This document shows, piece after piece, positions 11,249-60,838 of a DNA stretch of 64,000 nt. Each line of letters starts with the position of its first letter. The first letter of the stretch is position 1. Origin of the DNA: Escherichia phage RB69; the sequence record NC_004928.1; one strand, 5' to 3'. The notes under the pieces are model-generated. The model made no database searches and was not told the DNA's origin. It saw only the letters and a list, made by a program, of their open reading frames with translations. The position numbers and the translations under genes are program-made.

Positions 11249-11995
11249 TTAACCTTTAATCAGTTGGAATAATGATGCGCTAAGTGGTAAGCCACGTTTC
11301 AATTTTAATTTACCAATGAAACCAATCTTTTCAAAACGTTGCAGACCTTGGATAACTTTATCATATGTATCGAAAAGCGATTCAGCGTCAGTTAATTTAG
11401 TTTTAGTTTTCCAGTCAGAGCCTTTAAGAAGAACGTTGAGTTTAGTAAGTTCATGGCCTTCTGCTTGATGTGAGCCATTAATGCGTGCTTTCAAAGCAAC
11501 AATTCTAAGTTTAGATTCGTTAGATAAAGGTTGATTTTTCATCATGTTTGCCATATGCTTAACACGGTTTTCACGTTTTGCTCGGATTTTTAAAATAGTA
11601 CCATAAACCTTTTTAATTTGGGCCCATTTCTTCTCGTCGAGATTAAGTTTCTCTACTTTACGAGCAGAAGGATTAGCGATACGTCTTGCAATAGCATCAC
11701 GTTTCTCAATAAGTTCTTCTAATGTTAAATCAGAACGAGCCGTGTTATATTTTTTCTTAACTGGGATAACATTACCTTTAATGTAGCCTATATCATTATT
11801 AAAACGTTCTAAGGATAATTTCTCACCTTCAACAGAGTTATTGAAAGATTCACCTGAGTAAGCGCAGACCTTTTGATCAAGAATGTTTTTAAGGTAATTA
11901 AAGTCTAAGTTAAAATCCTTAGAGCGTCTCTTCGCAGAAGCTCTGGTGTGGTCAAGACGACGATTGATTTTGTTAATTTTATTATTTGATAACAT
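11249..11995 (-). CDS. srd: Srd-like protein (putative anti-sigma / sigma-mimic)
   Basis: 248-aa basic protein at the T4 srd position upstream of modA. Confidence 0.5.
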   Translation of the reverse strand: MLSNNKINKINRRLDHTRASAKRRSKDFNLDFNYLKNILDQKVCAYSGESFNNSVEGEKLSLERFNNDIGYIKGNVIPVKKKYNTARSDLTLEELIEKRDAIARRIANPSARKVEKLNLDEKKWAQIKKVYGTILKIRAKRENRVKHMANMMKNQPLSNESKLRIVALKARINGSHQAEGHELTKLNVLLKGSDWKTKTKLTDAESLFDTYDKVIQGLQRFEKIGFIGKLKLKRGLPLSASLFQLIKG

Positions 11996-12148: not shown

Positions 12149-12757
12149 TCAGTAACTGACAATAGACAGATTCCAGATTGTATAATGTCCATCTTGAATA
12201 ATAGAATCTACACGCAGTGTAGTCCCTATAGGGAGCATAAATTCACATTCGTCAGATATAAGTCTAGCGTTAGACCGTCTTGTCGCTTCAGGGAAAGCTC
12301 CATTGAACTCACAAGATGGCGCAGCCAGAATCATGTTAAGCATATGTTCACGGAAGTTGAAAGCAAATGGTGCATCTTTGATGCAGAACATATTAAATGT
12401 TCCGTAAAAATTATACGAAGCAAAGTTACGTGCTACACCGAACACTGGACTGAAGCTCATTACTCTGTCAAATTTAATAATACTACCAATGCCTTTATCA
12501 TCAAGTGTGGCCATAGTTTTCTTAGAGATTCCACGATACATTGTCTCAGGAACAGAAGACGACCAATTTCTACGAACAATTGCACTTAAATCTTGTTGGA
12601 TGCTATCAGGCTTGTTTTCCATACACTGCCATAGTACACTTTGTTCAATGTCACTGAATTGCTCATCGATTTTGTACTGAAGCATATCTTGATAATCCGG
12701 GCATTGAGCACGACGAACCATTTCTTCAATTTCACACTCGTTATACGGCATAAACAT
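12149..12757 (-). CDS. modA: ADP-ribosyltransferase ModA-like
   Basis: 202 aa; YRGI and SFS motifs; paralogous to the next ORF; T4 modA position. Confidence 0.6.
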   Translation of the reverse strand: MFMPYNECEIEEMVRRAQCPDYQDMLQYKIDEQFSDIEQSVLWQCMENKPDSIQQDLSAIVRRNWSSSVPETMYRGISKKTMATLDDKGIGSIIKFDRVMSFSPVFGVARNFASYNFYGTFNMFCIKDAPFAFNFREHMLNMILAAPSCEFNGAFPEATRRSNARLISDECEFMLPIGTTLRVDSIIQDGHYTIWNLSIVSY

Positions 12758-12814: not shown

Positions 12815-13396
12815 CTAAAAATTCAACATTTTCAAATGAATGATTTTGTATAATCTAGATAAAGGGTCATATTCTAAGTCTTCAATTTCCACAATCTCAA
12901 ATCTAGAGATACCTGAGACCATGTACTCTTGTTCAGATTCAATCATATCTAGGACATCAACACGTGTTTCTTCCATAACATGCTTAGGGTTCTTTCCGGC
13001 AAGTACAATGTTAATCATGTTTTGGTAGTAATCAAAAATGAATGGAGCATTCCTGAGACTAAGAATAGTGTACGTCTGATATTCCCATCTCCCGGAGAAT
13101 TGACGAGCTGTACTGAAATCAGTTGTGAACGATGTTACTCGTCCAGGAGACCAATGGCATCCAACAGAAAGAAGTGAAAGACGTTCTACTTCTTCTGGAG
13201 TTACACCACGGTAGAGTTCTACTGGTACTGTAGAAGTCATATGCTTACGAACAAGATGGTCTAATTCATAGTGGAAATCCGGGTCTTCCTTAGAATCGGT
13301 GCAAGCCCAGAGAATGTTTTGTTCTTGGCGGGTGAATTTGCTATCAATCAGATTTGTTAGGTATTCGCGTTCTTGAAGTTCAGATTGACATGTCAT
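12815..13396 (-). CDS. modB: ADP-ribosyltransferase ModB-like
   Basis: 193 aa; YRGV motif; paralogue of modA. Confidence 0.6.
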   Translation of the reverse strand: MTCQSELQEREYLTNLIDSKFTRQEQNILWACTDSKEDPDFHYELDHLVRKHMTSTVPVELYRGVTPEEVERLSLLSVGCHWSPGRVTSFTTDFSTARQFSGRWEYQTYTILSLRNAPFIFDYYQNMINIVLAGKNPKHVMEETRVDVLDMIESEQEYMVSGISRFEIVEIEDLEYDPLSRLYKIIHLKMLNF

Positions 13397-18001: not shown

Positions 18002-18661
18002 TTAACCTCGATTCATAAATGCATTAAATATTTGGTCATCAACAGAAATTTCTAATTCGACTTCAATTGCTTCAGCCTTTTCTTCAGGTGGTAATTCGTA
18101 TCCACACACTACAATTTTTTCATCGATATCAAAATATACAGAAGCAATACGATTAATGTTATTTTCAGTTAAGTCCAAATCAACATCAACATCTTTTTGG
18201 CTTACACTTAGAGGATAACTAATACGGGTTATTTTATTATCTTTAACAAAGAGTCCACCAACATACTCTGTACTACGTTTGAAGTTTACACGTTTCCGAA
18301 TTGAAAGATATGATGCATCTTTACCGTGAGCTCGGCTCATAGGACATAATGAATAGCTAGAATAAGAGATGTCAAATCCTACACCTTCAATATGAGCCAA
18401 CGTGTCATGATTAAACCAATTATAATCATATGCCAAATCCATTATATTGTAATATGTGAAAGGCACAGGATTAACATCATATGTTGTACCTTTAAAATCT
18501 GCCCAGGCAACGATTTCGTTATCTTTAACAATTACAAAAATTACACCGATATGGTATCCGTTATTATTTTCATTCGGCGTTATATTATAACATTGTGCAT
18601 TAGGAAATTTACCATATTTAAATGGCGCGTTTTTGTGCATGTAATAAATCATATTATTCAC
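18002..18661 (-). CDS. hypothetical protein
   Basis: 219-aa ORF. Confidence 0.5.
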   Translation of the reverse strand: MNNMIYYMHKNAPFKYGKFPNAQCYNITPNENNNGYHIGVIFVIVKDNEIVAWADFKGTTYDVNPVPFTYYNIMDLAYDYNWFNHDTLAHIEGVGFDISYSSYSLCPMSRAHGKDASYLSIRKRVNFKRSTEYVGGLFVKDNKITRISYPLSVSQKDVDVDLDLTENNINRIASVYFDIDEKIVVCGYELPPEEKAEAIEVELEISVDDQIFNAFMNRG

Positions 18662-58724: not shown

Positions 58725-59306
58725 TTATAACAACCCTGTCAAATCGTTCCAATGCTTCCGGCATAATGACACGTATCTATCGGTATCACCAATTTCAATT
58801 TGACTGCCATCTGTAATTGGAAGTCCGTCTTCCGTGACTCTAGCTACCATTGTGGCCTTTTTACCGCAATGACAGACACCTTTAAGTTCAACAAGCTTAT
58901 CGGCAATAGCCATTAATGCTTGAGAACCTTCAAATAGATTACCTTTAAAATCTGTTCGTAGTCCGTATGCCATTACCGGCACATTGTATACGTCAACAAT
59001 ACGACTAAGTTGATACACCTTTTCAGTAGTTAAGAACTGAGCTTCGTCAACAAATACACAGTGAATATCCTTTTGTGCTGCAGCCCATTTATAGAATTCA
59101 AAGATATCCATGTCTTTTGTAATTATATTGGCGTCCTGACGAATACCAATACGAGAGACTATTTCACCTTTTGAATCGCGAGTATCAATAGCCGGTTTAA
59201 GAACTAATACACCCATGCCACGTTCTTTATAGTTATGTGCGGCAGTAAGTAATGAAGCAGACTTACCAGCGTTCATAGCGGCATATGTAAAAATTAAACT
59301 AGCCAT
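58725..59306 (-). CDS. tk: thymidine kinase
   Basis: 193 aa; P-loop AMNAGKS and C-terminal zinc-ribbon cysteines. Confidence 0.9.
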   Translation of the reverse strand: MASLIFTYAAMNAGKSASLLTAAHNYKERGMGVLVLKPAIDTRDSKGEIVSRIGIRQDANIITKDMDIFEFYKWAAAQKDIHCVFVDEAQFLTTEKVYQLSRIVDVYNVPVMAYGLRTDFKGNLFEGSQALMAIADKLVELKGVCHCGKKATMVARVTEDGLPITDGSQIEIGDTDRYVSLCRKHWNDLTGLL

Positions 59307-59315
59307 AAGAGTCCC

Positions 59316-59498
59316 TTATAGTGAATTCACGTAGTCAATGAGTTCTTGTTCTTTCCTGTCAAATGATTCCATCAATGCGTGATATTCTTCATCTGTTAAA
59401 GGAGCATATTCATCGTACGCATTGGTGGCTGCTTGTTCATCCAATAGGTCATGGATAAGTTCGAACAGTTTAGCTTTCTCTTCTTTAGTTAATTTCAT
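59316..59498 (-). CDS. hypothetical small acidic protein
   Basis: 60-aa ORF. Confidence 0.4.
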   Translation of the reverse strand: MKLTKEEKAKLFELIHDLLDEQAATNAYDEYAPLTDEEYHALMESFDRKEQELIDYVNSL

Positions 59499-59989
59499 TT
59501 AGGTTCCCAATCAACAATCACAATTTCTAGTTTAGTGGAATACGTATCTAAAATCTCTTCGATGACATCCCAGTTTCCGCCACCGATACCTGCACCAATT
59601 CTTGGCATATAAATTACAGGCTTTGTTATCTTATTCTTTCCGAATTCATTTAATTCTATTATACAATTCATTAAAGCAGAGTACTCAAAATTAGGTCCCG
59701 GCTCAAACTGCGTATAAAGATTAAAGCAATAAGCTTTATGGGTCTTAAAATATTTTTCATAAACCGAATAAGTCCCGAGTTTAGACTCGTCTCCAAATTC
59801 GGTTTGAAGTTTATCGGCTTCCAGAATTTTTGGATAAGCCTTTGCTAATTGTCCTGCCACACCACCGCCCATTGTATGAAAACAATTACATCCATGAGCA
59901 ATATTATTACCTTTAGAAAACAGGGCGACAATATCGCCCTTGATATAGTTTTTAATCACTTGCTGCAAGTCCTCTAGTATAAGAGTCAA
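59495..59989 (-). CDS. macro-domain protein (ADP-ribose binding or processing)
   Basis: 164 aa; glycine-rich loops HGCNCFHTMGGGVAGQL and IGAGIGGG. Confidence 0.55.
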   Translation of the reverse strand: MTLILEDLQQVIKNYIKGDIVALFSKGNNIAHGCNCFHTMGGGVAGQLAKAYPKILEADKLQTEFGDESKLGTYSVYEKYFKTHKAYCFNLYTQFEPGPNFEYSALMNCIIELNEFGKNKITKPVIYMPRIGAGIGGGNWDVIEEILDTYSTKLEIVIVDWEPK

Positions 59990-60299
59990 CTAGACGGTCC
60001 ACCATAGAATTGCATGCTGCCTTATCTTTAGGTTCCGCCACCGAGCATTCTAATATTTGCCATTTTTTATAGTATCTTTTAATTAAGGTAGACGCCTTGA
60101 ACCTACTAGACGCCCCATCTTTTTCTCCGTCTTTATACGCATATAACAATTTTTGTGAAAAATCTACTTTACACTCTTGACTTTTACCGCAATAATCAGA
60201 CGCCGTTCTGTTTGTATACTCCGTTACATCAGTATATGTAGTATTAGCAAGAGCGTTAAATGAAACCAAGCCAACTATTAAAGCCAACATTTTGGTCAT
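59952..60299 (-). CDS. secreted or periplasmic protein
   Basis: 115 aa; signal peptide MTKMLALIVGLVSFNALA; four cysteines. Confidence 0.45.
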   Translation of the reverse strand: MTKMLALIVGLVSFNALANTTYTDVTEYTNRTASDYCGKSQECKVDFSQKLLYAYKDGEKDGASSRFKASTLIKRYYKKWQILECSVAEPKDKAACNSMVDRLVDSYTRGLAASD

Positions 60300-60838
60300 T
60301 CTTTTATTTCCAGTAGTTTATTTGATTTAAGGTAATTAGCCTTTTCTAGGACTTCAGAAGCATATTTACTTCCAGCACTTGTCTTCCATCCCGCATTATA
60401 TGAGGATATAGCTTTTCTTATATCCCCGTTATGTATATTTAACCAATAAGAAAATTCGATATAAGCCCATCTGGCTGAATTAGACCGCTTAGATAGCATT
60501 TTCTTAATTTGGGCGTCAGTCATATTATAACCAAGCTGGTTAATTCTTGCCCTCATTGTCGGTAGATAATTTTGGAACATTCCATACGCATGGTGACCTT
60601 TCTTATCTTTAAGATTAATACCGGCAGATGATTCCTGCCATAGTATTGCGGCCATTATGTATCCAAGTCCTTTCTTATGCATATTTTCATGCGTTTTAAA
60701 TTTTCCGTCCTTAGAAAACTGTTCCCCAAACTGATAAGCATAATTCAAGTTATCGAGTTGGACATTACTAAAAGTATGCTCGGAGCTATGTGCTGATAAC
60801 GAAAGAGCAAATAGACCAGCGAGTAGTGCTTTTCTCAT
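60296..60838 (-). CDS. periplasmic lytic-transglycosylase-like protein
   Basis: 180 aa; signal peptide; ILWQESS...AYGMFQ resembles the soluble lytic transglycosylase catalytic motif. Confidence 0.5.
   Translation of the reverse strand: MRKALLAGLFALSLSAHSSEHTFSNVQLDNLNYAYQFGEQFSKDGKFKTHENMHKKGLGYIMAAILWQESSAGINLKDKKGHHAYGMFQNYLPTMRARINQLGYNMTDAQIKKMLSKRSNSARWAYIEFSYWLNIHNGDIRKAISSYNAGWKTSAGSKYASEVLEKANYLKSNKLLEIKE

Follow-up and report, generated by a model that had tools for sequence, protein, structure and literature searches.

A macro-domain gene of Escherichia phage RB69 orthologous to T4 tk.4 (adfM) encodes glutamine in place of the catalytic lysine of DarG and TARG1

Bacteria can defend themselves with DarT2, an enzyme that attaches ADP-ribose to thymidine in DNA, and phages can escape the corresponding DarTG2 system. 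As phage T4 without adfA and adfN was still DarTG2-resistant, a further factor was expected (PMC11825919). In a preprint of November 2025, transposon sequencing of T4 on a DarTG2 host gave tk.4 as the single significant hit, its clean knockout made T4 DarTG2-sensitive and the gene was named adfM for anti-DarT factor Macrodomain; this was the only phenotype of tk.4 in the screens of the preprint (bioRxiv 10.1101/2025.11.20.689424). The gp104 protein of phage PhiKZ, also named AdfM, removes DarT2-made ADP-ribose from DNA in vitro, and de-ADP-ribosylation is reduced in its N23A variant (2026 Cell Reports, PMC13309987). From the bacterial side, the macro domain SCO6735 of Streptomyces coelicolor cleaves off the ADP-ribose that DarT links to thymidine, can rescue cells from this toxin and is inactivated by the exchange Q85A; its authors proposed a role of the Gln in positioning the distal ribose, with catalysis started by a water molecule held by the backbone (PMC9411070). 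Here we analyzed a macro-domain gene close to tk in Escherichia phage RB69 (NC_004928.1), within a stretch of 64,000 nucleotides that we call the window.

The gene is located at 59495..59959 on the minus strand and encodes 154 amino acids from a GTG start. Its product aligns with T4 Tk.4 (NP_049723) without gaps and with 129 of 153 residues identical (84%, E 3e-103). The order in transcription is regB, vs.1, vs, the macro gene, an open reading frame (ORF) of 60 amino acids and tk, and T4 has regB, vs.1, vs, tk.4, tk.3, tk.2, tk.1 and tk, with tk.4 on the same strand and in the same position. Because of the 84% gapless identity and this conserved position between vs and tk, the comparison identifies the macro gene as the ortholog of tk.4 (adfM), and the gene is already known through its T4 counterpart. 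A preliminary description made from the sequence had placed it downstream of tk, which is true in plus-strand coordinates only; as the two are read from the minus strand, transcription passes through the macro gene first and then through tk, which places the former upstream. The same description offered the removal of host ADP-ribosylation as one possible function, and this fits, as the 84% identical T4 ortholog is required against DarTG2 and its knockout was sensitised. The description was thus partly supported, being correct on the macro domain and in keeping with the evidence on host marks but not on the ModA and ModB marks discussed below, and it named neither a DNA substrate nor DarTG. 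Mosigvirus phages, which are T4-like coliphages, share 99% identity with the window, examples being moha and O157 typing phage 3, and near-identical GenBank records carry the labels "macro domain protein", "Poa1p-like" or "phosphatase". Homologs of the T4 type were found in 2794 of 50,697 phage records from many phage groups.

The ORF is a genuine gene on the minus strand, although it had initially been read from 59989 to 59495 (stop codon 59497-59495) as 164 amino acids starting with TTG. Translation almost certainly begins with the GTG at 59959, so that the product has 154 and not 164 amino acids, because the codon aligned to it is ATG in T4, the annotation of the near-identical phage moha uses the same start and, among the sampled tblastn rows with less than 90% identity, the alignments mostly begin at about residue 11 of the longer ORF. 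The in-frame TTG extension (59960..59989, minus strand), which comprises 30 nt within the 3' end of vs, is probably not translated.

The gene product is a macro-domain protein. With the Pfam Macro profile PF01661, which has a gathering cut-off of 22 bits, it scores 30.1 bits (E 5e-7) over positions 2-117 of the 118 in the profile; it also matches PHROG 335 (E 1.6e-65), and in a sequence-only search of solved structures the macro domains BT1257, yeast Poa1p, SCO6735, DarG and TARG1 were matched. An AlphaFold2 model built with 119 homologs as input has a mean predicted local distance difference test score of 95.8 and a predicted template modelling (TM) score of 0.91. Foldseek assigned the model with a probability of 1.00 to the macro domains of TARG1, Poa1p, DarG and BT1257 and also matched SCO6735, with TM-scores of 0.7-0.8 to the solved macro domains (Poa1p 0.80-0.81, the best query-normalised value; DarG 0.73-0.77; BT1257 0.77), so that the predicted structure agrees with an alpha/beta macro fold. 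Profile, model and fold search hence concur with the macro domain that had been proposed from glycine-rich loops in the ORF, and both loops (MGGGVA and GAGIGGG) are real.

Loop 1, M30-G31-G32-G33 of HTMGGGVAG (59861..59872, minus strand), aligns with MGAG/MGKG of TARG1 and DarG; among the 119 homologs G33 is invariant and M30 and G31 are conserved in at least 90%. Before it sits the macro-domain Asn N25 in H22-G-C-N25-C (codon 59885..59887, minus strand), which is kept in at least 90% of the homologs and in 80 of 80 bacterial relatives (35-44% identity) returned by a scan with one genome per species, and which aligns to the Asn of DarG "VNC" and to N23 of PhiKZ gp104. Loop 2, G122-A-G-I-G-G-G128 of PRIGAGIGGGNW (59576..59596, minus strand), aligns with PRIGCGL(D125)RLQW of TARG1; here P119, I121, G122 and G124 are invariant in the homologs and I125, G127, G128 and W130 reach at least 90%. 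According to these alignments both putative ADP-ribose-binding loops and N25 line up with TARG1, DarG and PhiKZ gp104.

The active site differs from that of DarG and TARG1, as Gln is found in place of the catalytic Lys. Q84 (codon 59708..59710, minus strand), in the motif N80-L-Y82-T-Q84, occupies the position of DarG K80 and TARG1 K84 and is invariant in the 119 homologs and in all 80 bacterial relatives. Family-profile alignments and MAFFT align it to K80 of DarG from Mycobacterium tuberculosis and Thermus aquaticus, to TARG1 K84 and to SCO6735 Q85. This equivalence is based on sequence and profile alignments together with the published structural alignment of SCO6735, TARG1 and DarG, and the profile alignments to TARG1 and the two DarG chains agree with MAFFT and with the published structure-based equivalence. 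For these comparisons the sequences of both DarG proteins, TARG1, BT1257 and SCO6735 were rebuilt from PDB alignments and gp104 was taken from the paper; SCO6735 was numbered by counting along the chain, which confirmed the aligned Gln as Q85. A single-sequence hhalign comparison with gp104 and a gp104 hidden Markov model alignment placed FPTK two to three residues out of register and were not relied on. In the alignments with both DarG proteins the FPTK lysine K80 is absent from the RB69 protein, which has Gln84 (NLYTQ) there. The catalytic dyad Lys84/Asp125 of TARG1 is likewise not present in the profile alignment, with Q84 and G126 at these positions; the position of D125 is occupied by Lys in T4 and by Ala in most homologs. 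Further residues invariant in the phage family, and particular to it in comparison with SCO6735 and BT1257, are D49, Y82 and H-G-C-N-C.

Taken together, we consider it probable that the gene, the Mosigvirus ortholog of tk.4/adfM, encodes a small stand-alone macro enzyme that reverses the DNA marks of DarT2 with a Gln-based chemistry like that of SCO6735. During infection the protein would bind the ADP-ribose that host DarT2 has placed on thymidines of single-stranded phage DNA, with the ADP-ribose held by N25 and both glycine loops, and would hydrolyse the bond between ribose and base, which would release ADP-ribose, restore replicable DNA and allow the phage to escape DarTG2. The chemistry would more likely resemble SCO6735 than the Lys-type of DarG and TARG1, with Q84 positioning the distal ribose for a water-mediated cleavage, and the RB69 gene should then confer the same phenotype as its T4 ortholog.

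Several points weigh against this explanation. As regards an enzymatic release of the DNA-linked ADP-ribose, the wording of the preprint is that it "seems likely", and the evidence from T4 is genetic only (bioRxiv 10.1101/2025.11.20.689424); the adfM phenotype comes from this preprint and was determined in T4, not in a Mosigvirus. The DNA-holding residues K34 and K89 of SCO6735 are not present in the RB69 protein, where G32 aligns with K34, and the loop corresponding to the mobile loop of SCO6735 is about six residues shorter and free of Lys. With a pI of 5.9 the protein is also mildly acidic, whereas SCO6735 is basic (pI 9.7). Net charge was nevertheless dropped as an objection to DNA binding, as PhiKZ gp104 is even more acidic (pI 5.05) and active on DNA. 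Moreover, two features recall Poa1p, which is an ADP-ribose-1''-phosphate phosphatase, namely the shared H-x-C-N-C motif and the highest query-normalised TM-score (0.81). The catalytically dead Q85A variant of SCO6735 still inhibits DarT in vitro, making a binding-type neutralisation possible in principle (PMC9411070).

The likeness to Poa1p would suit an enzyme with soluble ADP-ribose derivatives as substrates, be it an ADP-ribose-1''-phosphate phosphatase in the manner of Poa1p or a different one, which we regard as rather unlikely. H22 and T29 align with H23 and S30 of Poa1p, for which H23A and S30A mutant structures have been deposited, the T4 Tk.4 annotation reads "contains A1pp phosphatase motif" and PHROG 335 is labelled "phosphatase". 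However, Poa1p has Ser at position 84 and not the invariant Gln, and the only reported phenotype of tk.4 concerns DarTG2. Also speaking against a phosphatase, macro domains in general often show weak activity on ADP-ribose-1''-phosphate in vitro, and to our knowledge tRNA repair in T4 by Pnkp and Rnl1 leaves no 2'-phosphate, so that no ADP-ribose-1''-phosphate would be expected.

That DarT2 is neutralised without catalysis, through binding of either the toxin or the ADP-ribosylated DNA, appears improbable to a still greater degree. The DarG catalytic Lys is absent from the RB69 protein, and in vitro the ability to inhibit DarT is retained by each of the dead variants SCO6735 Q85A, DarG K80A and TARG1 K84A (PMC9411070). 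On the other hand, the RB69 protein has no DarT-binding domain, N25, Q84 and the glycine loops are kept in distant phage and bacterial homologs, and in the 80 bacterial relatives tblastn with a single DarT2 query showed no DarT2-like gene within 4 kb. Binding alone is the weaker explanation because such conservation of the pocket would be expected of an enzyme more than of a protein that binds a toxin.

The leading idea of the preliminary description was an eraser or reader of the phage's own marks set by Alt, ModA and ModB. As it had claimed, ModA- and ModB-type ADP-ribosyltransferase genes are indeed encoded in the same window (12149-12757 and 12815-13396, minus strand, both phrog_832 "RNA polymerase ADP-ribosylase", ~E 4e-38), with srd at 11249-11995 just below. 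The residue modified by Alt, ModA and ModB is arginine, and we know of no macro domain of the TARG1/DarG class with arginine-linked ADP-ribose as a substrate. ADP-ribosyltransferases and macro domains often occur together in phage genomes (PMC9503650), but in the window the macro gene lies ~46 kb from modA and modB and is not co-located with them. The T4-type macro domain is moreover present in the 2794 phage records mentioned above across many groups and has stand-alone relatives in many bacteria. With the linkage to arginine, this distance and DarTG2 as the only reported tk.4 phenotype, reversal or reading of ModA and ModB marks is unsupported and we regard it as very unlikely.

The preferred reading as a DarT2-directed DNA enzyme could also be too narrow, if the protein were a broader eraser that acts against other ADP-ribosylating toxins or defences on RNA or protein as well, DarT2 being one target among several. 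The substrate classes of SCO6735 and TARG1 include protein Glu/Asp and thymidine-DNA, for TARG1 also phosphate-linked nucleic acid ends, and the macro family is very widespread in phages. Still, CmdTAC, a system that ADP-ribosylates mRNA, strongly blocks T4 despite the presence of tk.4 (PMC11618068), so that the gene gives no protection in that case, and we judge the broader role to be unlikely.

The bacterial relatives also bear on the origin of the family. All 80 keep H22, N25, D49, N80, Y82, Q84 and W130. No DarT2-like gene was detected within 4 kb at the loci of these 80 closest relatives (tblastn with a single DarT2 query; all E >2), and no conserved neighbourhood was found among the 80 loci, where ORF calling was crude in GC-rich metagenome-assembled genomes. 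Because both a nearby DarT2-like gene and a conserved neighbourhood are missing, an orphan DarG antitoxin is a poor fit, and from these comparisons the family looks like a stand-alone protective enzyme acquired by phages. Whether T4-type AdfM represents a separate, Lys-independent lineage of thymidine-ADP-ribose DNA glycohydrolases that uses the invariant Gln and was recruited from DarT-unlinked bacterial enzymes, rather than a captured DarG, seems to us evenly balanced. If so, anti-DarT2 macro domains would have evolved in phages at least twice and with different catalytic solutions, and the stand-alone relatives in bacteria, which number in the hundreds, would be candidates for enzymes that protect DNA.

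At the locus itself the macro gene is tightly packed between its neighbours. Directly upstream lies vs, encoding the valyl-tRNA synthetase modifier (59952..60299, minus strand; phrog_1256, E 5e-35), with its stop codon at 59954-59952, and the last 8 nt of vs overlap the macro start (GTGATTAA). Downstream follows the ORF of 60 amino acids (59316..59498, minus strand; phrog_653, unknown function, E 2.3e-20) in the position of T4 tk.1-tk.3, whose ATG overlaps the macro TGA stop (ATGA), and then tk for thymidine kinase (58725..59306, minus strand; phrog_592, E 1.4e-87). The overlaps at both the start and the stop therefore suggest translational coupling of the macro gene with vs and with the small ORF. 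Within macro codons 7-13 lies a terminator-like GC-rich hairpin of 8 bp, AGGGCGATATTGTCGCCCT, followed by a T-rich run (59922..59940, minus strand), and the hairpin sequence is identical in T4. The region folds with a minimum free energy of -17.7 kcal/mol for 71 nt (z -2.1), and in the predicted fold the upstream Shine-Dalgarno-like AGAGGAC is paired with GUUUUCU just 3' of the hairpin. Judged from this folding model, the hairpin might serve in transcription attenuation or translation gating between vs and the macro gene; a terminator is annotated under the macro gene in one Yersinia phage record. A scan for sigma-70-like promoters around the macro gene gave 7 sites compared to 10.9 in shuffled sequence, and no transcription start could be assigned from it.

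Upstream of the macro gene, the vs product shows a signal-like hydrophobic N-terminal stretch (MTKMLALIVGLVSFNALA), which is odd for a cytoplasmic synthetase modifier, and in T4 vs was the most depleted gene in minimal medium (HIDEN-SEQ preprint, bioRxiv 10.1101/2025.11.20.689424). The vs.1 ortholog (60296-60838, minus strand; phrog_600, unknown function) has a signal-peptide-like N-terminus as well (MRKALLAGLFALSLSAHS) and is mislabelled as RegB in one phage record. Comparison of the window with the moha genome (MN850590) revealed that the offset between both shifts by ~1.85 kb between the srd/modA and tk regions (~13400 to 58700), and at least one insertion or deletion therefore separates the two otherwise 99% identical genomes.

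The window also contains the AdfA ortholog (T4 gp61.2) at ~18005-18652 on the minus strand, which is 65% identical to the T4 protein, and together with the macro gene this makes two anti-DarT genes in the window. AdfA is the anti-DarT1 factor first described in RB69, and at the position where His or Arg is reported to determine whether DarT1 is neutralised, the window encodes the RB69-like Arg (NNINRIAS compared to NIINHIAS in T4). The macro gene would be part of an anti-DarT set, which in T4 also includes adfA and adfN, and would account for the plating of T4-like phages, including this Mosigvirus, on DarTG2 hosts. Annotation could benefit as well, as hundreds of GenBank records that now read "phosphatase" or "hypothetical protein" could be relabelled. 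What remains of interest is mechanistic, namely how the common T4-type AdfM works without the catalytic Lys of DarG.

Compared with the described systems, T4 Tk.4/AdfM shares with the RB69 protein its length and all family-invariant residues, and the 5' hairpin of the gene is identical. It differs in the start codon (ATG in T4, GTG in RB69), in the number of ORFs before tk (tk.1-tk.3 in T4, one small ORF in the window) and in residue 126, which is Lys in T4 and Gly in the RB69 protein. Foldseek ranked human TARG1/OARD1 and yeast Poa1p highest. The H-x-C-N-C motif is found in Poa1p as well (AHGCNCFHTMGGG in the RB69 protein and IHSCNCNGSWGGG in Poa1p), but Poa1p has Ser at the position of Gln84 and is a phosphatase whose substrate is soluble.

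DarG, the DarTG2 antitoxin studied here in the T. aquaticus and M. tuberculosis proteins, has in common with the RB69 protein the macro fold, the opponent DarT2 and the aligned Asn and glycine loops. Yet the NCBIfam DarG model NF048014 gave only 30.7 bits against a cut-off of 250 and covered model positions 4-148 of 338, the C-terminal DarT-binding domain is absent from the 154 amino acids, and no darT is found beside the macro gene, whose neighbours are vs and the 60-amino-acid ORF. PhiKZ gp104, from a chimallivirus, is likewise a stand-alone phage macro domain protecting against DarTG2, but it is DarG2-like, having kept the DarG signature FPTK and matching M. tuberculosis DarG with E 9e-25. 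The PADLOC DarG model gave 133 bits for gp104 and 33 bits for the RB69 protein, and against the T4-type family profile gp104 reached 34.9 bits, below DarG and TARG1. BLASTP between gp104 and the RB69 protein matched 23 residues only (E 0.002). Because FPTK is kept in gp104, the scores with the DarG model differ and the BLASTP match is so short, these sequence comparisons place T4-type AdfM and PhiKZ gp104 in different macro-domain lineages, a Gln-type and a DarG Lys-type, of which the T4 type is about ten times commoner in phage genomes (2794 compared to 276 records). The shared name AdfM, given independently by two groups, is likely to cause confusion in annotation.

The closest parallel to the Gln-type active site is found in SCO6735 and in BT1257 from Bacteroides thetaiotaomicron, which are ALC1/TARG1-like and, as the RB69 protein, have Gln for the catalytic Lys. 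They are stand-alone proteins of ~150 amino acids, their NMIGQ aligns to NLYTQ with the Asn four residues before the Gln, and loop 2 has the form GxGxxGGxW. BT1257 is also the best solved-structure match by sequence, with E 8e-11 for the RB69 protein alone and ~2e-18 with the family profile. Nevertheless, identity to the two proteins is only ~22-27% (~27% for BT1257), whereas BT1257 and SCO6735 match each other with E 8e-54. We therefore treat the phage family as a clade that is related to but separate from SCO6735 and BT1257 and that probably shares the chemistry.

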